A stretch of DNA of 64,000 nucleotides, from NCBI GenBank assembly GCA_037127795.1, contig JBAXXQ010000002.1:11-64010 (forward strand). Direction: 5' to 3'. The notes under the pieces were generated by a model. The model worked only from the letters and a program-made list of their open reading frames with translations, made no database searches and was not told the origin of the DNA. Shown in pieces: positions 10,517 through 47,600 of this stretch (position 1 is its first letter; each line of letters opens with the position of its first letter). Source of the stretch: a bacterium (GTDB taxonomy: Bacteria; Patescibacteriota; Minisyncoccia; Phycocordibacterales; UBA9973). A program made the position numbers and the translations under genes.

Positions 10517-11296
10517 ATGATATATATCAAGACCCCAGAAGAAATAGCACACCTCCGCGAGGCTGGCCCAATACTTGCTCGTATTGTGCAAGAAGTGGCG
10601 GGTATGGCTCGCGAGGGTATGACTACTGGCGAGCTCGACAAGATCGCTGAAGCAAAGATTCGCGACGCAGGTGCAACACCAGGACTCCTCGGCTACAAGC
10701 CCGAAGGTGCTCGCAAACCATATCCAGCGACTATGTGTATCTCGGTCAATGACGAAGTGGTACACGGTATACCAGGGAATCGCGTTCTCAAAAATGGCAA
10801 CATTGTGTCTTTTGATACCGTACTCAAATACAAAGGAGTTTTTGTAGATTATACGACGAGTGTCGGTATTGGCGCTGCAGAGGGCAAAGTAAAAAAGCGC
10901 GATATGGATCTTTTGAAAGTAACCGAAGACTCACTCTATGCGGGTATATATGCGATCAAAGCAGGAAGCCGTACAGGGGACATTGGGGCTGCAATAGAAG
11001 CCTATGTGAAGCCACATAGGCTCGGTATTGTCCGTGGCCTTTCAGGCCACGGCGTCGGCCGCCACATCCACGAAGACCCATATATTCCCAATTATGGCAA
11101 AAAAGGTAAGGGCGAGCTCCTCGTCCCTGGTATGGTCATTGCTATCGAGCCTATGATGACATTGGGCTCAGAAGACGTCCTCGAGCTCCGCGACGGCTAC
11201 ACCCTCGTCACAGACGACCACTCTCGCGCCGCCCATTTTGAACACACGGTACTCATAAATGAAGCAGGAGAAGCCGAAATTTTGACCCAAATCTAA
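10517..11296 (+). CDS. map: Type I methionine aminopeptidase
   Basis: Pita-bread fold motifs (HGIPG, the metal ligands D..D..H..E..E) and the conserved operon position. Confidence 0.9.
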   Translation: MIYIKTPEEIAHLREAGPILARIVQEVAGMAREGMTTGELDKIAEAKIRDAGATPGLLGYKPEGARKPYPATMCISVNDEVVHGIPGNRVLKNGNIVSFDTVLKYKGVFVDYTTSVGIGAAEGKVKKRDMDLLKVTEDSLYAGIYAIKAGSRTGDIGAAIEAYVKPHRLGIVRGLSGHGVGRHIHEDPYIPNYGKKGKGELLVPGMVIAIEPMMTLGSEDVLELRDGYTLVTDDHSRAAHFEHTVLINEAGEAEILTQI

Positions 11297-11322
11297 AGCC
11301 CTGAAAAGGGGCTTTTTTTGTT
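11297..11322 (+). terminator. Rho-independent terminator after map
   Basis: Reads agccctgaaaaggggcttttttt. Confidence 0.55.
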
Positions 11323-11328
11323 GGTTTT

Positions 11329-11694
11329 GTGGTAGAATTCTTATATATGGCTGACATAAAAGAGCTTACTAATAAAGTGGTAAAATTCCGAGACCAGCGA
11401 GATTGGAAGCAATTTCACAACCCCAAAGATCTTTCAATATCTTTGGTTCTTGAAGCAAATGAAGTACTTGAACATTTTCAATGGAAGTCACCAGAGGAAA
11501 TGACTATTCATGTAAAACAGAATAAAAAAGAAATTTCAAAAGAATTATCTGATGTTTTGTATTGGGTACTTTTGATGTCTCATGATTTAGATATTGATGT
11601 AGAAAAAGCTTTTCTTACAAAACTAAAAGAAAACGCAAAAAAATATCCAGTAAAAAAAGCGAAAGGAAGTCATAAGAAATATACTGAGCTGTAA
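11329..11694 (+). CDS. MazG-like nucleotide pyrophosphohydrolase (small all-alpha NTP-PPase, COG1694-like)
   Basis: 121 aa. The pattern R.W..FH...L...L..EA.EVLE.F...S.EE......E...EL.DVL..VL..S..L.IDVE.A matches MazG/YpjD-type house-cleaning NTPases. It sits 4 nt upstream of the next ORF. Confidence 0.65.
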   Translation: MVEFLYMADIKELTNKVVKFRDQRDWKQFHNPKDLSISLVLEANEVLEHFQWKSPEEMTIHVKQNKKEISKELSDVLYWVLLMSHDLDIDVEKAFLTKLKENAKKYPVKKAKGSHKKYTEL

Positions 11695-11697
11695 GAT

Positions 11698-13725
11698 ATG
11701 TCAAAGATAGAAACCTTTCCTTTTAATAAAGATAATTTTGATCAAATCAAAGACTATAAATTTGGTAGAAATTGGCCTGTTGTATATGTTATCGAAGATA
11801 AAAAGGAAGTGTATATAGGACAAACTGTAAATGCTTATTTTAGAAGTAAACAGCACGTAGAAAATCCAGAAAGAAAAAAACTAAAAGAAATTCACATAAT
11901 TACAGACGAGGAATTTAATGTTTCTGCTGCGCTTGATATAGAATCTTGGCTTATTCAATATATATCCGCTGATGGAAAATTTATTTTACAAAACGGTAAT
12001 GGTGGTTTAAAGAATCATAATTATTACGACAGACAGAAATATAAAACAAAATTTGAAATCGCATGGGATCGTCTTCGTGAAAAGGGGATTGTACAAAACA
12101 CTCTTGCTGATTTAAAAAATAGCGATCTATTTAAATACTCACCATATAAGTCTTTAACAGAAGATCAATTCCTTGTTGCAAAACAAATATATAAAGATAT
12201 TAAGAAAAATGAAATAAATACATTTATTGTAAATGGAAAACCGGGAACAGGTAAGACTATTCTTGCGACATATCTTTTTAAGTATTTAAAAGAACAAGAA
12301 GAAACAAAAAATTTAAATATTGGACTTGTTGTACCTATGGCTTCACTTCGTAAAACAATACGAAATGTTTTTTCAAAAATAAAAGGATTAAAATCAAATA
12401 TGGTTATTGGTCCAAACGATGTTGTAAAACAACAGTATGATCTATTGATTGTAGATGAATCACATAGACTACAAAGACGAAAAGGGATTATGGGGTATGG
12501 TGCGTATGATACTGTAAATAAAGGATTAGGTTTGGATAATGAGGGAACTCAACTTGATTGGATTATGAAGTCTTCTAAACACCAAGTATTTTTTTATGAT
12601 GAAAATCAGAGTATAAAACCAGCAGATATTCGTGCAGAAGATTTTAGAAAACTCAATGCAAAAAAATACACACTTAATTCTCAAATGCGTGTTGAAGCTG
12701 GGGAAGAATATATAAAATTTATTGAAGATATTTTTGATTTACAAAAACCAAAACACACAGCATTTTCAAACTATGACTTTCAAATATTTGATGAAGCACA
12801 AGAAATGGTTGATAAGATAAAAGAGAAAGATAAAAAACATAAGCTTGCCCGTGTTGTGGCTGGCTACGCATGGCCATGGCATACAAAACCTGGAAGTAGT
12901 TCAAAGCAAAAATATGATATTGGAATAAATGGATTAGAGCTTATTTGGAATTCTACAGCACAAGATTGGGTAAACTCGTCAAACGCTATAAATGAGGTGG
13001 GGTGTATTCACACAGTACAAGGATACGACTTAAACTATGTAGGCGTGATTATTGGTCCAGAACTCTCATATGATATCAAAAATAAAAAGCTTGTGGTTGA
13101 TAAGCAAAAATATTTTGATACTAATGGACGAAATGGTATTTCTGATCCTTCAGAATTAGAGCGATATATTATAAATATTTACAAGACACTGCTTACTCGT
13201 GGAATCATGGGAACATATATGTATATTTGTGATGAAAGTTTAAGAAACTATTTTAATGATGTTATAAGTCAAAAACCTGTAATAGAAGAAAAGGTAAAAG
13301 AGGAAAAAACAGAAAAAATAAAGTCACCATATACAAAAATGGTTAGCTTGCCACTATATGAATCTGTAGGTTGTGGAGAGTTGATGTTTGCAGATTCTAC
13401 AGTACAAGAAATGGTAGATGTCCCAGAAGAATTTGTTTCAAAGGGGTCAAAATATTTTGTACTTAGAACAGACGGAGATTCTATGGATAAAGCTGGAATA
13501 CATGACGGAGATCTTGTGCTTTGTCGAAAGGACTACCACCCCGAAATAGGGAACAAGGTTATCGCGCTTATTGGTGACGATGCAACTATAAAGGAATATC
13601 GACGCGACCCAGAAGGAAATGTAATACTTCGACCGTGTTCTACAAACCCAAAGCATAAAGATCGTATTTTTACTGAATATGATGATTTGAAAGTACAAGG
13701 GGTAGTGGTTAGGGTTTTAGAATAA
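11698..13725 (+). CDS. Three-domain protein of 675 aa with an N-terminal GIY-YIG nuclease, a central P-loop SF1/DUF2075 (Schlafen/Nhi-like) helicase-type ATPase and a C-terminal LexA/UmuD-family S24 serine peptidase domain. The product is novel.
   Basis: GIY-YIG: VYVIEDKKEVYIGQT..R..QH..E..N. Walker A: NGKPGTGKT. Walker B: LLIVDESHRL. SF1 motif VI-like: IHTVQGYDLNYVGVIIG. S24: the GDSM serine nucleophile and the ATIKEY lysine general base. A VGCGELM Cys-Gly candidate autocleavage site precedes the S24 domain. Confidence 0.7.
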   Translation: MSKIETFPFNKDNFDQIKDYKFGRNWPVVYVIEDKKEVYIGQTVNAYFRSKQHVENPERKKLKEIHIITDEEFNVSAALDIESWLIQYISADGKFILQNGNGGLKNHNYYDRQKYKTKFEIAWDRLREKGIVQNTLADLKNSDLFKYSPYKSLTEDQFLVAKQIYKDIKKNEINTFIVNGKPGTGKTILATYLFKYLKEQEETKNLNIGLVVPMASLRKTIRNVFSKIKGLKSNMVIGPNDVVKQQYDLLIVDESHRLQRRKGIMGYGAYDTVNKGLGLDNEGTQLDWIMKSSKHQVFFYDENQSIKPADIRAEDFRKLNAKKYTLNSQMRVEAGEEYIKFIEDIFDLQKPKHTAFSNYDFQIFDEAQEMVDKIKEKDKKHKLARVVAGYAWPWHTKPGSSSKQKYDIGINGLELIWNSTAQDWVNSSNAINEVGCIHTVQGYDLNYVGVIIGPELSYDIKNKKLVVDKQKYFDTNGRNGISDPSELERYIINIYKTLLTRGIMGTYMYICDESLRNYFNDVISQKPVIEEKVKEEKTEKIKSPYTKMVSLPLYESVGCGELMFADSTVQEMVDVPEEFVSKGSKYFVLRTDGDSMDKAGIHDGDLVLCRKDYHPEIGNKVIALIGDDATIKEYRRDPEGNVILRPCSTNPKHKDRIFTEYDDLKVQGVVVRVLE

Positions 13726-13726
13726 A

Positions 13727-13779
13727 AGAGTATAAAAAAATCCTTTTTATAAAGGATTTTTTTATACTCTTTTATTCAT
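13727..13779. terminator. Bidirectional terminator (perfect ~22-bp-arm palindrome) between convergent genes
   Basis: Reads aagagtataaaaaaatccttt-ttat-aaaggatttttttatactctt. Confidence 0.6.
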
Positions 13780-13787
13780 ATTTTTAA

Positions 13788-14003
13788 TTAATCTTGTTGG
13801 GTTATTTTTGCATTTCCCGTAATTTTAATTTGTGCATTTCCTGTTAAATGTATTCCTGTATTTTTTGTAACACTAGAATAATTACCAGTAATTTCCATAC
13901 TACCACCATCTGTTGATAGGTGTTCAATTTTTGATTTTGGTTGTAAACCAGAAACTAACCCCTCAGTAATACCTGCTGTGATAGATTTTAAGTATTCGGC
14001 CAT
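13788..14003 (-). CDS. Small hypothetical protein (71 aa) with ITGN-type short beta-repeats
   Basis: ORF convergent on the nuclease gene. The repeats are TGNAQIKITGNAKIT. No recognisable family. Confidence 0.3.
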   Translation of the reverse strand: MAEYLKSITAGITEGLVSGLQPKSKIEHLSTDGGSMEITGNYSSVTKNTGIHLTGNAQIKITGNAKITQQD

Positions 14004-14115: not shown

Positions 14116-14847
14116 ATGTCTACATGGATTCAAAATAAGCGAAATATATCAGGGCTTTCTCAGGAACAAGTAGCAAAGACGTTGGGGATTTCACGTCCTA
14201 CATATATAAAACTTGAGCACGGGTTGAGTAAACCTACCGCACAGCAAAAAGAGCTTTTGGTGCAATTGTTTGGTGTCTCTACTGAAGCTTTTGAAAAAAA
14301 TGCTACAGAAAAAAAAATAAAAGAAGATACTATATATGAAGTATCTGTACCAAAAGAAAATATTGATAAATTTAAACAGGTACTTTTGTATATAGTGAGT
14401 AAGGTAGGGAGTCGTCCAAATATTGGGCAGACCGCTTTGTATAAATTACTTTATTTTATTGATTTCGATTATTATGAAAAATATCAAGAATACTTGATGG
14501 GGGCTACTTATATAAAAAACACTCATGGTCCAAGTCCTGTTTCGTTTGCAAAGATTGCAAGGGATTTAGAACATGCTGGTGAGCTTGTAGAAGTGCAAAG
14601 TAAGTTTTTCAAATATGATCAAAAGAAATATATTACGACTAATTCTCCTAATGTATCTACACTCACAGCACAAGAATTGCAACATATAGACGAAGAGCTT
14701 GATCGTCTTGCAACAAAAACCGCTCGAGAACTTTCTGATATGTCTCATATAGATACTCCATGGCGAGTAGCAAAAGAAAAAGATATTTTAAATTATAGGC
14801 ATGTATTTTATCGTCCAGATGAAACATCTGTGGTGGATAGTGAGTAA
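14116..14847 (+). CDS. HTH-XRE DNA-binding domain fused to a Panacea (DUF4065/SocA-like) antitoxin domain
   Basis: The N-terminal helix-turn-helix is LSQEQVAKTLGISRPTYIKLEHG. The C-terminal segment ALYKLLYFIDFDYY...HGPSPVSF is a PanA-type signature. Confidence 0.65.
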   Translation: MSTWIQNKRNISGLSQEQVAKTLGISRPTYIKLEHGLSKPTAQQKELLVQLFGVSTEAFEKNATEKKIKEDTIYEVSVPKENIDKFKQVLLYIVSKVGSRPNIGQTALYKLLYFIDFDYYEKYQEYLMGATYIKNTHGPSPVSFAKIARDLEHAGELVEVQSKFFKYDQKKYITTNSPNVSTLTAQELQHIDEELDRLATKTARELSDMSHIDTPWRVAKEKDILNYRHVFYRPDETSVVDSE

Positions 14848-14853
14848 TTATAT

Positions 14854-15189
14854 ATGCCCGAGTTTCATCAATTACCAGAATACCAAAAAGAGCTAAAAAG
14901 GCTTTCTAAAAAATATCCAAGCGTTTCTAATGATATAGAAGATATCAAACAAGTATTATTAGCATCTCCCACAGGAATAGGAAAAAATTTTACTATAATT
15001 TCTTCAGAGAAAGATATAAAAATTGTAAAAGTTCGTATTCAATGTGCTTCTTTACGAAGTCGTACTATCCGACTTATATATGCATACCATGCAAATACTA
15101 TAGAATTTATTTATATAGAGGTATATTTTAAAGGTGATAAGGAAAATGAAGATAGAGTAAGAATTTCAGAATATCTAGAAAATAAATAA
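14854..15189 (+). CDS. RelE/ParE-superfamily-like toxin (putative partner of the Panacea protein)
   Basis: 111 aa, 6 nt downstream of the Panacea ORF. The C-terminal pattern [26 protein letters not shown] resembles RelE/YoeB/HigB-fold toxins. Confidence 0.45.
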
Positions 15190-15190
15190 T

Positions 15191-15406
15191 ATGCCCACCC
15201 AACCCAGCAACCCACTTCAAGGAAAAACGCTAGAGACAATACTTGTGTTTCTTGTCGATATGTATGGCTGGGAGGAGATGAGTAGGAGGATACGGATCAA
15301 TTGTTTTGCGAATGATCCGAGTATCAAGTCTAGTCTGACATTTCTCCGACGGACACCCTGGGCTCGTAATAAAGTAGAGCAGCTGTATATCAAGAGTGTG
15401 GGGTAG
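15191..15406 (+). CDS. VF530/DUF2132-family small DNA-binding protein
   Basis: Reads [55 protein letters not shown], which matches the VF530 family consensus. Confidence 0.6.
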
Positions 15407-15443: not shown

Positions 15444-15677
15444 TTAGGCTTTTTTGAGAAATTCGGTGCGGAGCACGAGGCCTTTGACACCTTCGGCGCT
15501 ACACTCGATCAGCTCTTCGTCGTCTGAGAGGCGAATGTTTTTGATCTTGGTCCCTTTTTTGAGGGTGAGGTTGCTTCCTTTTACTTTTAATTCTTTGATT
15601 ACGGTCACACTGTCGCCATGTGCAAGAGTATTGCCATACGCGTCTTTGTGAATTATTACTTCTTCTATATCATCCAT
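15444..15677 (-). CDS. PhnA-like (PhnA C-terminal domain) small protein
   Basis: Reads DAYGNTLAHGDSVTVIKELKVKGS..TLKKGTKIKNIRLSDDEELIEC...GLVLRTEFLKK, a PhnA-domain consensus. Confidence 0.6.
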   Translation of the reverse strand: MDDIEEVIIHKDAYGNTLAHGDSVTVIKELKVKGSNLTLKKGTKIKNIRLSDDEELIECSAEGVKGLVLRTEFLKKA

Positions 15678-17314: not shown

Positions 17315-17641
17315 ATGCAAGACAACTCTTTTACTGACTATATCGTCTACGACATACTCGGGCATATTCCCGATATTCGTACCAAAAAAATGTTCTCAGG
17401 GGTGGGGATATATGTCGGGGATAGTATTGTGGCATTTGTCGCTGGTGGGGAATTGTATTTCAAAAGTGATGCAGCATTGGTGCAAAAATATACTGCGCTT
17501 GAGTGTCATCCATTTACCTATACCAAAAACGGTAAAGACATAGCGCTCAAGTATATGTCGGCGACGGAGTCTATGCTCGAAGACCGCGCAATAATGGAAG
17601 AGCGCATCGCGGAGGCTTTGAGTTTGAATAACAAGGAGTGA
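17315..17641 (+). CDS. TfoX N-terminal-domain-like protein
   Basis: Reads KKMFSGVGIYVGDSIVAFVAGGELYFKSD, which matches the TfoX_N pattern (MFGG.G.Y..G..FA.....LY.K.D). Confidence 0.55.
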   Translation: MQDNSFTDYIVYDILGHIPDIRTKKMFSGVGIYVGDSIVAFVAGGELYFKSDAALVQKYTALECHPFTYTKNGKDIALKYMSATESMLEDRAIMEERIAEALSLNNKE

Positions 17642-17647
17642 TATACT

Positions 17648-18076
17648 TTGGGTATGGAGGAATATAATATTTTTGATGCGTGGAACAGCGAAAAGAAAAA
17701 TATTCATGCGGCTGATAATACTACAGACTTTTTCATAAAGCCTCGTGAAATATGGTTTACGAAAATGGGAAAAAATATTGGGTATGAAGAAAATGGTAAA
17801 AAAGAATTTACTCGTCCGGTATTAGTTTTGAAAAAAGTAGGGAATTTATTTTTTACTGTAGCTCTAACAACTAAAGGAAAAGAAGAAAACAAATTTCATT
17901 ATAAATTTACCCAAGCGCATTTTACCGGGGAACACAAAGATCATGAAGATAGTTCTTTTGTAATTCTTTCACAGGCTCGTGTGATGGATAAAAAAAGATT
18001 TCAAGAAAAAATAGGATATATTGGCACTGAAGAATTTGAGATCATAAAACAGAAAATCACAACATTGCTATTGTGA
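17648..18076 (+). CDS. MazF/PemK-family-like toxin (CcdB/MazF fold)
   Basis: Reads REIWFTKMG.NIGYEENGKKEFTRPVLVLKKVGN...VALTTKGKE. The RP(V/A)LVL motif and overall layout match MazF/PemK mRNA interferases. Confidence 0.5.
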   Translation: MGMEEYNIFDAWNSEKKNIHAADNTTDFFIKPREIWFTKMGKNIGYEENGKKEFTRPVLVLKKVGNLFFTVALTTKGKEENKFHYKFTQAHFTGEHKDHEDSSFVILSQARVMDKKRFQEKIGYIGTEEFEIIKQKITTLLL

Positions 18077-18194
18077 TTTTCTGAAACTTTTTCCCTCCTC
18101 GTGAGAGGAGAAATCCCTAAGGACATTTGTATTTACATAATATACCACTTTTTATTGAGCGTCAAATAGTATGATTTGATGATATACTAAGTAT

Positions 18195-18599
18195 ATGAAA
18201 AAGAAGAATGCATATACCTGGTACAAAACCCTCAAAAAACCGTCCTGGGCGCCTCCACAATGGCTTTTTGGCCCGGTATGGACATTCCTCTATATTCTCA
18301 TTTTTATCTCATTTGGGGCTGTTTTTACGGCTTTTGGAAGGGGTTTGATACCGTTTTGGGTAGTACTTCCTTTTGGGATCAATATTTTCTGTAATGCAAT
18401 ATTTACGACACTGCAATTCAAACTCAAAAACAATCTCCTTGCTGCGCTCGATATCAGCCTTGTCCTTATCAGTCTCGTCTGGGCTATGTATGTAGTATAT
18501 CCGTACATACACTGGGTGGCGTATATGCAGATCCCGTACTTGGTGTGGGTTTCTTTTGCGACAGTGTTGCAGTTCACGGTGACATATATAAATAGGTAG
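18195..18599 (+). CDS. tspO: TspO/MBR-family (tryptophan-rich sensory protein) membrane protein
   Basis: Motifs [19 protein letters not shown] and [13 protein letters not shown] match the TspO consensus. Five hydrophobic segments. Confidence 0.65.
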
Positions 18600-18600
18600 T

Positions 18601-19131
18601 ATGGGAGATCTACAATACAGTATCAAGATACACGCGAGAGCGAGAGGGGTAAAAATTTCTATTCATGCAGATGGGCATATCGTAGTGACCAAGTCTCGTC
18701 GCGTATCTGATGCAAAGGTTGCAGAATTGGTCCACACAAAAAAAGAATGGATTTTTGAAAAACAACAAGAGATGTTGTCGCGTCCCAAAAAATATCTTGC
18801 ACACTATACCAAAGAAGATTTTTTACAATACAAAAAAGACGCACTCATACTCGCGACAAAAAAAGTCGCACAGTGGAATGCGATATATCAGTTTCCTATA
18901 CAAAATATTTCTATACGCAATCAAGCTACTCGCTGGGGGAGCTGTACCAAACATCGCTCTATTCAATTTAATTACAAAATAGTATTTCTTCCAGAATACT
19001 TGGTGGACTATCTTGTCGTACACGAATTGTGTCACCTCAAACAGATGAACCATTCGCAAGATTTTTGGGATCTCGTCGGAAAGACTATTCCAGAATACAA
19101 AACATATCGCAAAGAGCTTCAGTTGTATTAG
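18601..19131 (+). CDS. YgjP/DUF45-family metal-dependent hydrolase
   Basis: Reads HELCHLKQMNHSQDFW, identical in pattern to the E. coli YgjP HELCHLKEMNHS..FW zinc motif. Confidence 0.65.
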   Translation: MGDLQYSIKIHARARGVKISIHADGHIVVTKSRRVSDAKVAELVHTKKEWIFEKQQEMLSRPKKYLAHYTKEDFLQYKKDALILATKKVAQWNAIYQFPIQNISIRNQATRWGSCTKHRSIQFNYKIVFLPEYLVDYLVVHELCHLKQMNHSQDFWDLVGKTIPEYKTYRKELQLY

Positions 19132-38655: not shown

Positions 38656-41600
38656 ATGAGAGCAAATATTTTTAAAAAATTTGCGTCGTTCATTTTGTAC
38701 ATTTTTGTACTCTCTTTTGTCGTACCAAGTACAACTCTCGCTATCACAGGAGCCCCAAGTATTATCAGCTACCAAGGAAGACTTACAGATAGCTCTGGTA
38801 ACTTGCTCGGTGGCGCAGGCACACTCTATGCATTCAAGTTTTCTATCTGGGACAATTCAGTAGTGGGGGCTGGTACCAAGCTTTGGCCTGCAGCAAATCC
38901 TGGCGTAGATTCTGTGCAGGTCACTGATGGGGTGTTCAATGTCCGCATCGGTGATACTGCGAACGGCTACCCAGATACACTCAACTACAATTTCCAAGAT
39001 AATGCCAATGTCTATTTGCAAATAGAAGTTTCTTCTGATGGTACGACATTCGAGACGCTTGGTCCTCGTCAGCAAATCACTTCAGCAGGCTATGCGATAA
39101 ATGCACAGACACTGCAGGGCCTCACCCCTGGTACTGGCGCAAACAATCTTTTGCAATTGGGAAGTAATGGCGAGATCAATCTCTCAGGAAATGGTATTTC
39201 TACACTCGGCAATGTAGGTCTCGGTACTGTATCGAGCGGTGTATGGCATGGCGATCCTATTGCAGACGGCTATTTTGTAAAAACAGGGAACTGGGAAGGA
39301 AATTTTGGTGGGTACGATAGTAGTTACTATCTCAATGCGACTCATTTATCAAACTTCCAAATCCCATTTGATACTGCATTCGCGACAAAGACTACAGATA
39401 GTCTCGCAGAAGGAAGTTTGAATAAATATTTTACCGATACTCGTGCGCGCAATGCTATATCTGTAGCAGGTGCACCGTTGAGCTACGATACTAGTACTGG
39501 AGTAGTATCTATCGCACAAGCAGATAGTACACATGCAGGATTTGTATCAGCGGCAGATTACAACACCTTCAACAACAAACAAGATGTATTGATCTCTGGC
39601 ACTAATATAAAAACAATAAACTCAAATTCTCTCCTCGGTGCGGGAGATATTTCTGTTGCGACATTGCTTGGCTATACACCATACAACACAACAAACCCAA
39701 GTAATTTTATTTCAAATATTGGCGGCCTCGTAACTCCTGGTACCAATGTCTCAATCACCGGGAGTGGTACTGCGATAGATCCGTTTGTTATCACTAGTAC
39801 CAATCCAGGTGGGACAGTGACTTCTTTTGCTTTTACAAACAGTAACGGCTTCACAGGGAGTGTTTCAAATAGTGGGACTACGCCGACACTAACGCTTGCT
39901 TTGCAATATGCAAACAGTACACAAGACGGTCAGCTTTCTGCTACTGATTACAATACCTTTAATAATAAACAAGATACACTCGGCTACACACCATACAATG
40001 CGACCAACCCCGCAGGATATATCTCAAATCTTAACGCACTTACTACAACAAATTTGAATGAAGGAAGTAATTTGTATTTCACCAATGCCCGCGCAATAAG
40101 CGCACTCACCGGGCAAAATATTTCATTATTAAATAATAACGCTGGCTATATCACCGGTGTCTCATGGGGTGGTATTACAGGACTTCTTGCAAATCAAACA
40201 GACCTCCAAAATGCACTCAATGCAAAACAAAATGTCATCACACTCGGCACTACTGCACAATATCTCCGTGGAGACTTGTCTCTTGGGACATTTCCAACTG
40301 CAGTATCGAGTTTTACCAATGATGCAAACTATATCACCACCGCAGGTGCACGAAGTGCTATATCTGTAGCTAGTACACCACTCACATACAATAGTAGTAC
40401 GGGGGTAGTCGGTATCAATCAGGCAAATAGTACAACCGATGGTTTTGTATCAAGTACTGATTGGAATACATTCAATAATAAATTTAGTCTCCCAGCCCTT
40501 ACAAGTGGCTCTGTTGTTTTTGCAAATGGTTCAACACTTGCACAGGATAACAATAACTACTATTGGGACAGCACTAATGCGCGTTTGGCAATTGGTGGCT
40601 CTTCGTCAGGTGCAAGTTATCCAAGTGTTGCAATGACAGGTGCAAGTACTCCGAGTCCTTATGTGGCTAGTGCCTCAACTTTTAATACAGGGTTTGAAGC
40701 CTATAGAGCTTTTGATAATAATAGTGGTACAAACTGGAATAATACTGCAAGTACTGGTTGGCTTGCTATTGACCTAGGTAGTACGACAACAATAAATAAA
40801 TACCAAATTCAAGCATTAAATAGTGCTGGTACTGTTTCTGCGACCCCAAAAACATGGACTCTCGAAGGTTCTACTACAGGTGCATGGGCTGGGGAACAAG
40901 TGATTATTGATACTCAGGCAAGCCAAACAGGTTGGACTGTAAGCGAAATACGAACTTTCACTCTTTCATCAGCACAATCATATAGATACTATCGTATAAA
41001 TATATCTGCAACTAATGGGTACCCTACAATAGGTATAACCTCATTTGTTTTACAAAATACTTCACCTATTCACGTTTCTCCGCTTGCAAAACTCCATATC
41101 ACCGCTGGATCAAATACGGAAAAAGGTCTCATTGTACAAGGTGCTGCAAGTCAAACTGCAAACCTTCAAGAATGGCAGGATAGTGCAGGGGGTATATTGT
41201 CATATATGACCCCCGCGGGAAATATAGGGTTTGGATATGGTAGTCATACTATATCTATAGATGCTCCATCATCAAACAGTAATGGAAGTAATTTGACGAT
41301 TATTGCGGGGGCTACTACTGGGACTGGATACACAGGAGGAAATTTGTACTTACTTCCTGGGGCAACTGCGGGAGGAGGTTCTGCAGGTAGTGTTTGGATT
41401 GGGGGAAACTCTTCAGGTAATTACCAATCATATAGTAATAATATTCAAGGTTTTACAAGAGTTAGGAATGGGGGGCCTAATACAAATAATTTACTTGCTC
41501 TTGCTGGTGGATCCGGTTTGGATAACTGGGTATTCTCATACGATCAAACAAATAAATATGCAATTACGACATATGCGAGTACGTATCAAGCGCAATTTAA

Positions 41601-44600
41601 AACTGCTACAGCGTATACATTTGATAATAATGTAGGTGTTGGTACTATTTCTCCCTCAGCACGATTGCACTCTCTTGCTACTACCGAGCAGCTTCGCCTT
41701 GGATATGACACAGCAAATTACATGTCTACTACTATTGGTAGCACTGGCAATGCAACTCTCGCACTCACTGGCACCGGCACTCCAGCATTTACATTCTCAA
41801 ACCCTATAAATATCTCTGGTGCACTCACTGCGACAAGTATTACAAACTCATCACTCACTCAAGGCTCAGTACTCTTTGCAGGTGTGGGTGGGTTAGAGTC
41901 ACAAGACAATAACAACTACTATTGGGATAGTACCAATGCACGGTTGGCAATTGGAGGGTATTTAGGCGGGACTGTATATCCGACAACTGCAATGACTGCA
42001 AATAATCTACCATCTCCTTATGTAGCAAGTGCCTCATCTGTATCGGGAGGTTACCCAGAATATCAGGCTTTTGATAAAAACGCTTCAACATTTTGGGCAT
42101 CTCTTGTTAATAATCCAACCGGTTGGATTGCGATTGATTTGGGTAGTACTACAACAATAAATAGATATCAGGTACAAGCTACTTCTGGTGGAGGAAATGT
42201 AAACCCTAAAAACTGGACTCTCGAAGGTTCTACAACTGGCGCATGGGCAGGTGAGCAAGTAGTACTTGATACTCAAACAAACCAAACCGGCTTAATGACA
42301 GGGGGTGCGATTCTCACATACACTCTTTCGTCAAATCAATCATACAGATATTACAGATTAAACGTGAGTGCAAACAATGGCGCTACTAACTACCTTGAGG
42401 TTGCTAGTTTCAATGTACAAAATACAAATACAACTCATGTAGCACCACTTGCAAAACTCCATATCACCTCAGGTTCACAGACTGAAAAAGGTTTGATTGT
42501 TCAAGGATACGCAAGTCAAACTGCAAACCTTCAAGAATGGCAGGATAGTACTGGTGCAGTGAAGGCATATATTGATCCGTTCGGTCAGATTACTTCATCA
42601 AGTAATATTTATGCAACAGGTACTGTTACTGGTGGTAATGGAAGAATTATAATGTCTGGTGGTTTAACTAATGGAGCAAACGGTTCTATCTACACACAAT
42701 CAGGACAATCAAGAAGTTTGGAATTGGTAGTCGATCAAACTGCTGGTCGCGGAATGCTTATTCAGACAGGGACAGGGTATGTAGGAGTAGGTACTACATC
42801 TCCTACGTCTATGCTCGATGTAGCAACAAATGCGCTCGGTACAACACAGACAACAACAAGTGGTCTTGCGCTAGAAAACAACACTGCAGGTGCGCTCAAC
42901 GCAATGCAAATATCTCCAGCTGTACGTATGAGCGGGCAGGGATGGTATGTAAACGGAAGTGTATCACAACAAGTTGATGCTCGTATGTATGTGTTGCCAG
43001 TTCAAGGAACATCAGCAAATGCAACAACGTCAATAGTATTTGATGCACAAGATGGAAGTCGTGGAGGATTTAATAAAATTGCTGATTTTTCTAATCAATA
43101 CGGAGGTACCAGTGGAAATTTAAATTTATATGATAGCGGTGTTATTAAGGCTTCTTTGTTTGCTGGAGGTAATGCAAGATTAAATTTAAATGGAGGTATA
43201 GTAACTAGTCGAGGTAGTAATATTATAATGAGTACATCAGTTCTTAACGATCCTAATACTTATAATATGGGGATGGTGACATCTATATCTAACACTCTTC
43301 CACAATTTTCTGCAAACTATAATGCGACAAACTATTTTACAACAACGGTAGGTAGTACAGGCAACGCAACACTCGCACTTACAGGTACTGGTACACCATC
43401 ATTTACATTTTCAAACCCCGTAAATATTTCTGGTGCACTCACTGCGACAAATATTACCAACTCATCCCTCACCCAAGGCTCAGTAATCTTTGCTGGTGCG
43501 GGTGGAGTAGAGAGTCAGGATAACAATAACTACTATTGGGATAGTGTAAACAATCGTCTTTCTATTGGAGGGTATTTAGGTGGGACTGTATATCCAACTT
43601 CTTCAATGACTACAAACAGCTTGCCATCTCCTTATGTGGCTACGTCTAGCGGCTCTCAAATTGGTGGGTATGAATCATTTAGAGCTTTTGATGGAGTCCT
43701 TTCATCTGCGTGGGCTGTTGGGACTACTTCTGGTTGGCTTGCTCTAGATACAGGTAATGCTCTTGGGACAACAATAAATAAATATCAAGTACAAGCATCA
43801 AATCCGATGGGCATAGGTATTGGTTCTATGCCAAAAAACTGGACTATTGAAGGTTCTACAACTGGTGCATGGGCTGGTGAGCAAGTAACCATTGATACAC
43901 AAACAAATCAAACTGCTTGGTCTTTAGGAGAAATTAGAACATATCCCCTTTCAACACCTCAAACATATAGATATTATCGTATAAACATTAGTGCAAACAA
44001 TGGTAGTAGTTCATATACTGGTATTGGTGCATTTAATCTTCAGAATACTGCAACAACACACGTAGCACCTCTTGCAAAACTTCATATCACTTCAGGTTCA
44101 CAGACAGAAAAAGGATTGATCGTACAAGGATATAATTCTCAAACTGCAAACCTCCAGGAGTGGCAGGATAGTAGTGGAAGTATAAAAGCATATGTTGATA
44201 GTGGTGGTACTTTTAATACCGGTGCTACTATTGTTGCGACAGGTTCTATTACTGGGGGAAATGGAAGAGTTGGTATAGGTGCGGGTCTTACAAGTAGTAC
44301 GAACGGCGCGATATATTCTACTTCTGGAAAAAGTTTGGAATTGGTTACAGATTCAACAGCTGGTCGTGGAATGCTTATTCAAACAGGAACAGGTAATGTC
44401 GGTATTGGCACAACATCACCTTCAGCAAAAACACACATTCTCGGTACTACTGAACAACTCCGCCTCGGATACGATGCTTCAAACTACATGTCTACTACTA
44501 TTGGTAGCACTGGCAATGCAACTCTCGCACTCACTGGCACCGGCACTCCAGCATTTACATTCTCAAACCCTATAAATATCTCTGGTGCACTCACTGCGAC

Positions 44601-47600
44601 AAGTATTACAAACTCATCACTCACTCAAGGCTCAGTACTCTTTGCAGGTGTGGGTGGGTTAGAGTCACAAGACAATAACAACTACTATTGGGATAGTTCA
44701 ACACAACGTCTTGCAATTGGAGGTTCTTCATCGGGGTCAAGTTATCCAAGCGTTGTTATGACCGGGAATAGTAGTCCGTCTCCGTATGTAGCTAGTGCAT
44801 CAGGTACTAATTATGGTGCACCGTGGAACGCTTTTGATAATAATTCTTCAACAACATGGAAATCTAATGTACTTGGATCAGGTTGGCTTGCTATTGATTT
44901 AGGAAGTGTTACAACTATAAATAAATATCAAATTCAGGTAGATCCTGTCTACACTAGTAATCAACCAAAAACATGGACTCTCGAAGGTTCTACTACGGGT
45001 GCATGGGGAGGTGAGCAAGTAACTCTCGACACACAGGCGAGTCAAACAGGGTGGGCTGTGGGTGAAATACGTACATTTACTCTTTCGTCATCTCAATCAT
45101 ATAGATATTTTAGAATAAATGTCACAGCAGTTTCTGGTGTTGATAATGTGGTTATTGCTTCATTTGTTTTACAAAATACTTCTCCGACCCACGTTTCTCC
45201 TCTTGCAAAACTCCATATCACTGCTGGATCAAATATTGAAAAAGGTCTCATCGTACAGGGTGTAGCAAGTCAAACCGCAAACCTCCAAGAGTGGCAAAGT
45301 AGTACCGGAAGTATTTTGTCTACTATAAATAGCAGTGGATATTTGGGTATTGGAACAAGTACTCCTCGATATCAAATTGAATTAAATAGCGGAACTGCTA
45401 ATTCAAGTCTTGTATTGTCGGATTCCGCAGCTTCGTCTACAAGTCGTGGACTTTCTTGGACACGATCAAGTGATGGAACAGTATTTCAATATATTTCTGC
45501 AACAACTGATAGTGGAAATATGCTTTTAGCAGCATATCACAATGTATTGTTTGTCTCAGGATCTGGTAGTGGTGTTGGTATGGGACTTCCGACAACAAAC
45601 AATTTCCTTTCAGGTAAATTGCATATTCGTGGAGAAAGCTCTGATACATCTTCAAACACTTATACAGGTACCAATGCATTGTATGTAGAAAACTCGCTTG
45701 CGCAACAGCTCTTCTCTGTGGCAAACACAGGAAGCGTCGGTATTGGTACAAACACTCCTACATCATTACTCCAAGTAACTCAACGTACAACAGGTGCGGG
45801 TACTGTTACCAACACTGCGGGCGGTACAACTGTTACTGGTACTGGTACACAATTTACAAACACCTTTAAAGTCGGAGACACAATCACTATCGGTGGGCAG
45901 ACTGTTGCTATTTCTGCTATTGCATCAGATACAGGTATGACAACAGCTGCGATCACAAATGCAAATACCAATGCGGCATATACACTCGTCGGTGGAAATA
46001 GATTTGCGGTGAGTGGTAATGGAAATACTATCGTTGGTCCTGCAACATATAGTCCGTCTAATGCACAATTCTTTGTTTCAAACTCAACATATAATAATGG
46101 ATCAGGGGTTATTATTGATACGAGTGGGACATACCCAAATGCAAGTACAAACCCTCTTATTGGATTTGTGGGTGCTGGATTAACACTACCTTCATCGTGG
46201 ATTCAGGCTGTATTGCCGTATGGTGCAATGCAGATGAGAGCGTATAGTGACTTGCAAATTACAACTACAAATGCAACAGGGGGAGGTTTGAGTGTCAACA
46301 GTGGGGCTACATTTAGTGCTTCGTTGGGTAGAATAAATGCAGCGGGTACGCGTACCTCAGTTTCTGGGCAAGCATCTAGTTTCTATAGTAATGTTGCACT
46401 TACCGCAGCAGCAACAAATGATATTTTGGCAAGTTATTATATAAATGATACTTATGTTCCTGGTGCATTTACTGGTGTTACTCAATACGGTATTTATCAA
46501 AACAATACTGCGCAAAACTATTTCCAAGGGAATGTGGGAGTAGGTACTGCGACACCTTCTGCAAAACTACATTCTCTTTCTACTGGTGAACAGCTTCGTC
46601 TTGGATATGACGCGTCAAACTATACCGCATTTACAACATCTTCAACTGGAAACTTAACTATTAATCCAAGTGGTGCTGCGGTCCAAATTGCTGGTAATTC
46701 TGCCCTTATTATAAATCCTGGAAATGGAACACTGGGTGTCGGTGTAAGTGCTCCAACAGCAAAAGTTGATATTGCAGATATTGCACTTGCCGGTAGTGGA
46801 TCACTTGCTGGATCGGTGTTAAATATCGCACAAACTTGGAATACGTCAGGTTCACCTACTGCTATAAAATTGGCGGTTACAAATACTGCAAGTAACGCTA
46901 CCTCAAGTTATCTCCTTGATTTGCAGGCAAACAATAGCGGAGGAGGAATGTATTCTAAGTTTAGTGTGAGATATGATGGGTATGTCGTTGCGGGTTCTTC
47001 AATATCAGCAGGTGGTGCTTTTGTAGGGTTAACAAACGGACAAGATAATCAGCCTATTATTAAAAATAATAATACAGCGTTTGGTTTATGGACAACAAAT
47101 TCACTATCATCAAGTTATGTAGGCTATGGTACTAATATCACACTAGGTATGAATATGAATAGTACTGGAAACTTTGGATTCAGTACTACGGCAACAGCAA
47201 CAGAGAAAGTGACAATTGCAGATACAACTCTTGCTGGTAGTGGGTCACTTACTGGCTCAGTACTTAATCTTACACAAACATGGAATACAACAGGAGCACC
47301 AACTGCTATTAAATTGAATGTGACAAACACTGCAAGTACAGGGACGCCAAAACTTCTTGATTTGCAAGTGGGAGGAGTGTCGAAGTTCTATGTGCCAGCG
47401 AGTGGTAGTGTTCAGGCACCAAACGGCATTGTTGCAAGTAGTGGATTCACTATGAATGGTGGCTTAGGAATTGGTTCTGCATTTGCTGGTAATGGATCAT
47501 GGGGTAATTCTTCTGGCTCAAATGTGATTAATGGTGTTGCAATTTATCCTACAATAAACCTTACTGGTACATATTCAGGAAGTGCATTTGGATTTTCTTT

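Follow-up and report, generated by a model that had tools for sequence, protein, structure and literature searches.

The 64,000-nucleotide stretch of Patescibacteriota DNA analysed here (contig JBAXXQ010000002.1; the whole stretch is called the window below) encodes a 675-residue protein that joins a GIY-YIG-like nuclease head and a DUF2075/Schlafen group 3 ATPase to a C-terminal Peptidase_S24 domain. The C-terminal 128 residues of this protein appear to form a self-cleaving module of the LexA type with its catalytic residues intact, in which the bond between Cys559 and Gly560 would be cut by the Ser595/Lys632 pair, either of the same chain or of a dimer partner. That this is a real, cleavage-competent LexA-type site we regard as probable. 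Our full explanation goes further and proposes a trigger of the RecA* type (RecA on single-stranded DNA) and an activation of the nuclease-ATPase by its release; we give it a probability of about 45%.

The predicted cleavage site

Every feature of the C-terminal domain that we examined, namely profile, catalytic dyad, scissile dipeptide and modelled fold, places it in the S24 family. The Pfam profile Peptidase_S24 (PF00717) matches residues 552-671 over its entire length (profile positions 1-116 of 116), with an E-value of 1.5e-22 and 79.9 bits against a cut-off of 23.3. A sequence-only reading of this DNA had drawn attention to positions 13350-13725, which are the 3' end of the open reading frame (ORF) encoding the whole protein, including the peptide ...SLPLYESVGCGELMFADSTVQEMVDVPEEFVSKGSKYFVLRTDGDSMDKAGIHDGDLV...DDATIKEY..., and the linker peptide quoted there (LYESVGC-GELMFADS...ATIKEY) is present as written. 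Its Cys-Gly, proposed as a candidate self-cleavage site of the UmuD/LexA type, is the sole Cys-Gly dipeptide in the protein, and geometry, dyad, conservation and modelled loop position all agree with the proposal. Cys559 precedes Ser595 by 36 residues, a distance put at about 35 in the sequence-only reading, and Ser595 precedes Lys632 by 37; the corresponding distances are 35 and 37 in LexA, and 36 and 37 in UmuD.

In a phmmer search against the sequences in the PDB (E 3e-12), 'slplyesvgcge' was aligned to 'KIPLIGEIRAGE' of Thermotoga maritima LexA, with 'vgcge' opposite 'iRAGE'. A MAFFT alignment of the C-terminal part to LexA, UmuD and phage cI, a check proposed along with the site, puts all three landmarks on homologous columns: Cys559-Gly560 shares its column with the dipeptides at which LexA, UmuD and lambda cI are cut, Ser595 falls on LexA S119 and Lys632 on K156. 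For this alignment we used what we take to be the reference sequences of Escherichia coli LexA, UmuD and lambda cI, in which the landmark residues fall at their published numbers. The flanks of the site also agree, P552/L553 aligning with LexA P77/L78, E561 with E86, and M563/F564 with L88/L89. The overall identity of the S24 domain to these references is 27-30%. Taken together, the Pfam and phmmer matches, the MAFFT alignment and the conservation described below argue that the homology of the site to those of S24 proteins is not due to chance.

The domain scores below the NCBIfam cut-offs both for LexA (TIGR00498, 74.7 against 110.95, with the match confined to residues 525-674) and for UmuD (NF007621, 64 against 110), and in PHROGs it reaches 82 bits with a repressor family compared to 65 with a UmuD-like one. 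Judged by these scores it seems somewhat nearer to LexA and the cI-type repressors than to UmuD. The label 'UmuD-like' given to the site is therefore apt as far as the dipeptide (Cys-Gly) and its spacing (36 residues) are concerned, but not for the domain as a whole. The predicted cut would separate a 116-residue C-terminal S24 fragment from a 559-residue nuclease-ATPase body, in good agreement with the detached piece of about 120 residues that had been anticipated. This arrangement had been described as the reverse of LexA, a description that does not hold: the order of N-terminal functional domain, linker, scissile bond and S24 domain is exactly that of LexA and cI, and the sole differences lie in the kind and size of the N-terminal part.

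We computed two AlphaFold models, one of the full-length protein (mean predicted local distance difference test score, pLDDT, of 83) and one of residues 536-675 alone (pLDDT 88.8). In the former, the linker at residues 526-545 is disordered (pLDDT ~32) and the S24 domain is well folded and all-beta; pLDDT values for this domain are 80-95 in both models. LexA structures are known in a closed state, where the site occupies the catalytic pocket (1JHE, 8GMS, 8TRG, 8S7G), and in an open state (1JHF, 3JSP, 3K2Z, 8B0V) (PMC11787620; bioRxiv 10.1101/2023.10.30.564768). Superimposed with Foldseek, both models fit the closed chains 1jhe_A, 8gms_A, 8s7g_A and 8trg_I with a root-mean-square deviation (rmsd) of 2.2-2.4 Å over 125-126 columns. 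Over the same columns, the rmsd rises to 4.2-4.8 Å for the open chains 8b0v_A, 7b5g, 7ocj, 7zra, 1jhc, 8trg_J, 3jsp_A and 3k2z_A, a set that includes nanobody complexes. The target-normalised template modelling (TM) scores are 0.84-0.86 for the three closed chains that have the length of the C-terminal domain (CTD) and 0.74-0.78 for the open chains of that length; the near-full-length chains 8trg_I, 3jsp_A and 3k2z_A score 0.52-0.58 owing to the longer target. 8TRG provides an internal control, since its RecA-bound closed chain I lies at 2.4 Å and its unbound chain J at 4.6 Å. In the full-length model, the strand ahead of the site extends to Gly558 and the Cys-Gly dipeptide lies in the next turn, an arrangement that has also been described for closed LexA (PMC11787620). 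The modelled position of the Cys-Gly loop, which the sequence-only reading had proposed as a test, is thus that of closed rather than open LexA as judged by the overall fit.

Conservation was analyzed in two sets of homologs. At least 120 cluster representatives from a protein database, with identities of 66-100%, all have the same three-part architecture, and in their MAFFT alignment Cys559, Ser595 and Lys632 are conserved in 120 of 120 and Gly560 in 119 of 120. More distant members (35-50% identity) came from 50%-identity representatives and from scans of metagenome, genome and viral contigs. Across 157 non-redundant S24-bearing members from bacteria of the candidate phyla radiation (CPR), Bacteroidota and viral contigs, which span identities down to less than 40%, 133 carry Cys-Gly at the site and a further 20 carry Ala-Gly, so that the dipeptide is canonical in 153, with four exceptions; the nucleophilic serine is invariant (157/157) and the lysine nearly so. 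Distant examples are ...RAAAGNFS from a Bacteroidota genome (Ala-Gly) and ...QAACGYFG (Cys-Gly). To our knowledge, Ala-Gly and Cys-Gly are the sole scissile dipeptides in the S24 protease family, and an alternation between precisely these two is what would be expected of a scissile site. The alternation of Ala and Cys at position P1 shows the requirement to be for a small residue and not for a thiol. In one member (P0046), hmmalign showed an exchange of the lysine for isoleucine, which we took as an alignment artefact, MAFFT disagreeing.

These data bear on the possibility that the S24 domain is a degenerate remnant that serves for dimerisation only, or that it cuts another protein in trans, with Cys-Gly being incidental. 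The four members without a canonical dipeptide, one of which has also exchanged its lysine for arginine, would fit such a remnant; the retention of serine, lysine and dipeptide across less than 40% identity, the Ala/Cys swap exactly at the P1 column, as predicted for a scissile site, and the loop modelled in closed position all speak against it, so that we consider this explanation very improbable. The four members (L025, 2986-5208; L032, 2818-5199; P0117; P0162) would provide natural non-cleavable controls.

A second cysteine of the domain, Cys609 (LVLC, nucleotides 13522-13524), is invariant in the close family and also Cys in most of the distant Ala-Gly relatives; LexA has Val here. We considered a redox lock between Cys559 and Cys609 and rejected it, because position 609 is Cys in most of the Ala-Gly relatives too and does not co-vary with a P1 cysteine.

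Trigger and consequence of cleavage

The body that would be released contains the ATPase, for which the Pfam profile SLFN-g3_helicase/DUF2075 (PF09848) gives an E-value of 3.2e-69 and 234 bits against a cut-off of 24. Its GKPGTGKT and DESH motifs are intact and invariant across the family, and Foldseek matches it to the helicase domains of RecD2, Dda, Upf1, nsp13 and SLFN11/14. For the head, the GIY-YIG match to residues 28-63 (E 0.0018, 18.9 bits) remains below the Pfam cut-off of 22.6. We nevertheless accept the assignment as likely, because two relatives pass this cut-off (L099 with 32.8 bits, L014 with 25.5 bits), the family profile of the head has weak matches (E 0.05-0.1) to three GIY-YIG structures in the PDB (I-TevI, T4 endonuclease II and UvrC), and six residues (Y30, Y39, G41, R49, E82, N99) are invariant in the family. 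The combination of DUF2075 and S24 has already been seen by annotation pipelines, without interpretation, some automatic names at JGI reading 'DUF2075 family protein/SOS-response transcriptional repressor LexA'.

In the 50%-identity library, the S24 domain is missing from most of the close relatives; these are 520-600 residues long and end at about residue 520-526 of the 675-residue protein. As they stop near the predicted cut, the nuclease-ATPase body is evidently a complete enzyme on its own, and the fact that the 1-559 product would share their architecture is the best argument that cleavage frees a working enzyme. The S24 domain also occurs on DUF2075 proteins with other heads. In L062 (2377-4749) and L081 (2215-4659), the head has 250 residues and no match in Pfam, be it to GIY-YIG or to another family, the site is Cys-Gly or Ala-Gly, and a MazG-like gene lies upstream. 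Being present or absent, and on differing heads, the S24 domain is thus a modular add-on. Annotated plasmid and phage collections yielded only S24-less relatives or stand-alone S24 repressor and UmuD genes.

We propose that the cleavage loop probably flips between an open and a closed position as in LexA, and that a co-protease probably stabilizes the closed, cleavable one. The most likely co-protease would be RecA on single-stranded DNA, which forms in DNA damage, prophage induction or phage replication. The cut would free the 559-residue GIY-YIG nuclease/DUF2075 helicase from the S24 fragment and most likely switch on or release a DNA-degrading enzyme resembling the anti-phage protein Nhi, with no transcriptional step; the freed enzyme would act together with the conserved MazG-like nucleotide pyrophosphatase encoded next to it. 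The uncleaved domain may plausibly act as an autoinhibitory lock, as had been suggested from the sequence, and the S24-less relatives, which end about where cleavage would cut, are a point in favour of this.

Cleavage could also turn the enzyme off, by exposing a new C-terminal degron or through the loss of a needed S24-mediated dimer, and so remove it when RecA* appears, for example in order to protect recombination intermediates. There is a precedent in the N-terminal fragment of LexA, which ends in ...VAA and is reportedly degraded by ClpXP; distant relatives of our protein would end in ...AAA or ...AAC after the cut, resembling an ssrA-type tail, and the S24 domains of LexA, UmuD and cI dimerise, while Nhi works as a dimer. 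In the clade of the window, however, the freed body would end in ...SVGC or ...SAPC, which is not Ala-Ala-like, the S24-less relatives show the body to be complete without the domain, and degradation of the body would be an extrapolation from LexA. Inactivation by cleavage therefore appears decidedly unlikely to us.

With regard to the trigger, Phe203 of RecA inserts into a pocket of LexA formed by V79, V82, F111, L113, V146 and V153, which exists only in the closed state (bioRxiv 10.1101/2023.10.30.564768). The equivalent residues here are Y554, V557, F587, L589, I622 and A629, and all six positions are hydrophobic throughout the family. This is consistent with a dependence on RecA*, though as evidence it is weak because the residues also belong to the core of the fold. 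In one CPR genome that carries the cassette there is also a gene for a canonical LexA, its site being Ala-Gly, so that an SOS-type system exists in at least some hosts. The respective ORF lies about 5 kb from the cassette (L012, 1-1084, minus strand; Paceibacterota metagenome-assembled genome, JAIPHX010000003.1). It encodes a helix-turn-helix (HTH) domain, ...SIAAGQP..., GDSM and TLKKL, and runs stop-free into a C5 cytosine methyltransferase motif (TIDLFAGIGGIRMGF), which may be a further S24 fusion of an unusual kind or else an artefact of assembly or of a frameshift.

The same pocket could mean that the main role of the S24 domain is targeting, as a module which docks into the groove of the RecA filament on single-stranded DNA and brings the nuclease-helicase to stalled forks or to intermediates of recombination-dependent phage replication, the cut being a release step or timer. 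The long flexible tether would suit a recruitment domain, human SLFN11, which is of the DUF2075 type, responds to DNA damage and defective replication, and the suggested targets of Nhi are intermediates of phage replication. Against this, the pocket residues are part of the fold core too, so that their conservation says little, RecA binding is putative, and the strict conservation of dipeptide and dyad shows selection on cleavage itself and not on binding alone; we judge a primary role in targeting to be unlikely.

Several points weigh against activation by RecA*-triggered release as well. We infer cleavage itself, RecA* as its trigger and activation as its result from the observations above. 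In the models, the block containing the loop has a pLDDT of only ~73, the LexA structures that served for comparison were among the training data of AlphaFold, and the structural evidence for the loop reaching Ser595 is indirect, consisting solely of the superposition fit. LexA docks less readily into the RecA groove when bulk is added on its N-terminal side (bioRxiv 10.1101/2023.10.30.564768), and the 559-residue body might likewise impede docking unless the long linker brings relief. This linker of 20 poorly conserved residues, with its pLDDT of ~32, would be more in keeping with a sensor on a tether than with a lock that inhibits by rigid contact, and since S24-less enzymes are tolerated without a lock, the body may not need inhibition. 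Finally, the four members without canonical dipeptide have CW, IG (together with the exchange of Lys for Arg), AS and AT instead, from which it follows that cleavage is not indispensable everywhere.

The two-gene unit and its neighbourhood

The protein is encoded in a two-gene unit together with a MazG-like nucleotide pyrophosphohydrolase, whose gene stops 4 nucleotides ahead of the main ORF (Table 1). Translation of the MazG-like gene may in fact begin at an ATG at 11347. Upstream, the map gene (Peptidase_M24) ends at 11296. Downstream, within 13720-13777, a long perfect hairpin with A/T runs on both sides looks like a bidirectional intrinsic terminator that closes the unit; it stands between the cassette and a small ORF on the minus strand (13788-14003).

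Table 1. Location of the features of the two-gene unit in the window.
Feature	Position	Strand	Residues	Basis and remarks
Terminator-like hairpin	11295..11315	+		Consensus scan; ends the preceding secY-adk-map operon; bounds the two-gene unit on its 5' side
MazG-like nucleotide pyrophosphohydrolase gene	11329..11694	+	121 from GTG	Pfam MazG-like, E 6e-17; PHROG pyrophosphatase
Main ORF	11698..13725	+	675 + stop	GIY-YIG-like head, DUF2075/SLFN-group-3 ATPase-helicase, linker, Peptidase_S24
GIY-YIG-like nuclease head (likely)	11776..12012	+	~27-105	Sub-threshold Pfam match; invariant residues
DUF2075/Schlafen group 3 helicase-type ATPase	12220..13233	+	175-512	Pfam PF09848; Foldseek
Walker A, GKPGTGKT	12235-12258	+		Motif position in ORF
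Walker B, DESH	12454-12465	+		Motif position in ORF
Lys/Glu-rich flexible linker	13273..13332	+	526-545	pLDDT <50; no consensus residue in family columns
Peptidase S24 domain (LexA-CTD-like), including cleavage-site strand and loop	13339..13722	+	548-675	Pfam PF00717; Foldseek
Predicted scissile bond (TGT GGA)	13372..13377	+	Cys559-Gly560	Same column as LexA A84-G85, UmuD C24-G25, cI A-G
Predicted nucleophile (GDSM)	13480..13482	+	Ser595	Aligned to LexA S119
Predicted general base (TIKEY)	13591..13593	+	Lys632	Aligned to LexA K156
Long perfect hairpin, A/T runs on both sides	13725..13772			27 paired bases (27-bp stem); -34 kcal/mol; z-score -13.4

Of the genome loci, 13 have sequence upstream, and in every one of them, that of a 38%-identical Bacteroidota homolog included, a MazG-like gene lies directly upstream; it is also found in this position in contigs from JGI, NCBI and Logan and in three contigs from IMG/VR. 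It further occurs upstream of many S24-less relatives and of relatives with a different N-terminal head. As it is there with or without S24, the partnership is a property of the DUF2075 core rather than of the S24 add-on. On a Bacillus plasmid, a MazG-like gene likewise accompanies a DUF2075 gene: in this locus (L115, 1036-5662; Bacillus sp. PGP15 plasmid p1), three consecutive genes encode a nucleotide pyrophosphohydrolase, a 686-residue protein annotated as 'GIY-YIG nuclease family protein' and a DUF2075 relative without S24, which suggests a wider family of MazG-linked nuclease/NTPase cassettes. The 686-residue protein was ruled out as a carrier of S24, its translation lacking the Ala/Cys-Gly ... 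G-x-S-M ... Lys motif. The MazG-DUF2075 pair was not found in literature searches, the coverage of which is incomplete, so that its absence is not proof.

The hosts are mostly CPR/Patescibacteria, with others among the Bacteroidota. Outside the unit, the neighbours vary between loci and include toxin-antitoxin pairs, Fic, M78 with HTH, a ubiquitin-like system, DNA glycosylases and a DNA methylase (restriction-modification). A YgjP-like metallopeptidase, a PemK toxin, TspO and YjdM are found only a few kb away from the cassette in several genomes of the CPR (17315-19131 in the window; L017; L019); with these recurring genes, the neighbourhood is partly syntenic and not a purely random island. 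The neighbour types, together with the partial PADLOC matches to Nhi and AbiO described below, suggest a defence-like setting. In PADLOC and PHROGs, neither the MazG-like protein nor the 111-residue downstream ORF matched a defence family.

This downstream ORF belongs to a gene pair at 14116-15189 (plus strand), where a protein of 243 residues with an HTH_3 and a SocA/Panacea domain is followed after 7 nucleotides by the ORF of 111 residues, which has no family match. The pair looks like a Panacea-type antitoxin-toxin pair. Next come genes for a VF530 DNA-binding protein (15191-15406) and, on the minus strand, for PhnA/YjdM (15444-15677). Further along, the window contains a giant ORF of 3375 residues (38656-48783, plus strand).

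Comparison with known systems

Self-cleavage by S24 domains is a textbook SOS switch, acting on repressors (LexA, phage cI) and on UmuD. Placed on a nuclease-helicase, such a switch could allow the sensing of DNA damage or phage replication to act on an effector enzyme in one step, bypassing transcription. Our tentative proposal, which we hold to be possible, is that of a post-translational SOS effector in one polypeptide: RecA on single-stranded DNA would trigger self-cleavage of a Schlafen-type nuclease-helicase, which would then degrade replicating phage DNA or damaged DNA. This might be the first S24 switch on an enzyme rather than on a repressor or polymerase subunit and a bacterial counterpart of SLFN11 logic, and, with nucleotide-pool control by the MazG-like protein, it might constitute an undescribed two-gene defence system in CPR, Bacteroidota, Firmicutes plasmids and phage-like contigs. 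In literature searches we found no publication on a DUF2075-S24 fusion, but their coverage is incomplete and this absence is not proof. The protein offers a testable way into the bacterial DUF2075/Schlafen-like enzymes, of which little is understood, and to the MazG-like protein that constantly accompanies them, and a first functional hint for a gene pair that is abundant in CPR/Patescibacteria, hosts not yet open to genetics. The variants that occur in nature, be they S24-less, Ala-Gly, Cys-Gly or broken-site, already provide a series for comparison.

Among the known systems closest to the switch is the LexA CTD (MEROPS S24), known from E. coli, T. maritima and P. aeruginosa structures. It has the same fold (TM 0.84-0.86), a Ser/Lys dyad, a bond between a small residue and Gly 35-36 residues before the Ser, the common motif PL-x-x-x-V-x-[AC]-G-E, a hydrophobic pocket at the RecA Phe203 site and the same order of parts. 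It differs in that LexA has a winged-helix DNA-binding domain where our protein has a nuclease-helicase of 520 residues, in having Ala instead of Cys at P1, and in sharing only 27% identity. As the 675-residue protein has no DNA-binding domain and stays below the TIGR00498 cut-off, it is not LexA and not a transcription factor.

UmuD, a subunit of DNA polymerase V, shares the Cys-Gly bond and the 36 + 37 spacing at 30% identity. In UmuD, cleavage activates the protein (UmuD to UmuD') and does not destroy it, and an activation by release would follow suit. However, UmuD is a stand-alone protein of 139 residues that pairs with UmuC, and it is a small N-terminal arm that is removed, whereas here a large enzyme would be released. 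Among the neighbours (MazG-like, HTH-Panacea and others) there is no umuC-like or other Y-family polymerase gene. Not being stand-alone, having no umuC neighbour and scoring below NF007621, the protein is not UmuD.

The body resembles the single-protein anti-phage nuclease-helicases Nhi, Nhi-like and AbiO, which also consist of an N-terminal nuclease followed by a DUF2075 helicase ATPase of the superfamily 1 type and occur in a similar, defence-island-like setting. The PADLOC matches to Nhi (PDLC02372, E 1.4e-14, residues 141-473 only) and AbiO (E 3.7e-15) are partial and cover only the ATPase part; a full-length match to the Nhi model was not obtained. According to the Nhi paper, its nuclease domain belongs to the restriction-endonuclease-like nucleases and Nhi is a single-component system, whereas our protein has a GIY-YIG-like head, a MazG-like partner and an S24 domain. 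Literature searches, with the incomplete coverage noted above, revealed no link of Nhi/DUF2075 to MazG or S24.

The Schlafen group 3 proteins, such as human SLFN11 and SLFN14, share the helicase-type ATPase family (Pfam SLFN-g3_helicase; Foldseek 7zel, 9jr9). SLFN11 ties DNA damage and replication stress to a nuclease response. As these proteins have another nuclease domain and no protease switch, the shared logic is an analogy only.

In regulators of the CapH/CapP type, a DNA-damage signal likewise leads to proteolysis that releases an immune function; there, a separate metalloprotease cuts a repressor and the effect is transcriptional. The sole match to CapH in PADLOC is a weak one of the neighbouring HTH protein. 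The sequence from damage signal to proteolysis would be common to both systems, but in the protein described here, protease, cleavage site and effector are combined in one polypeptide.

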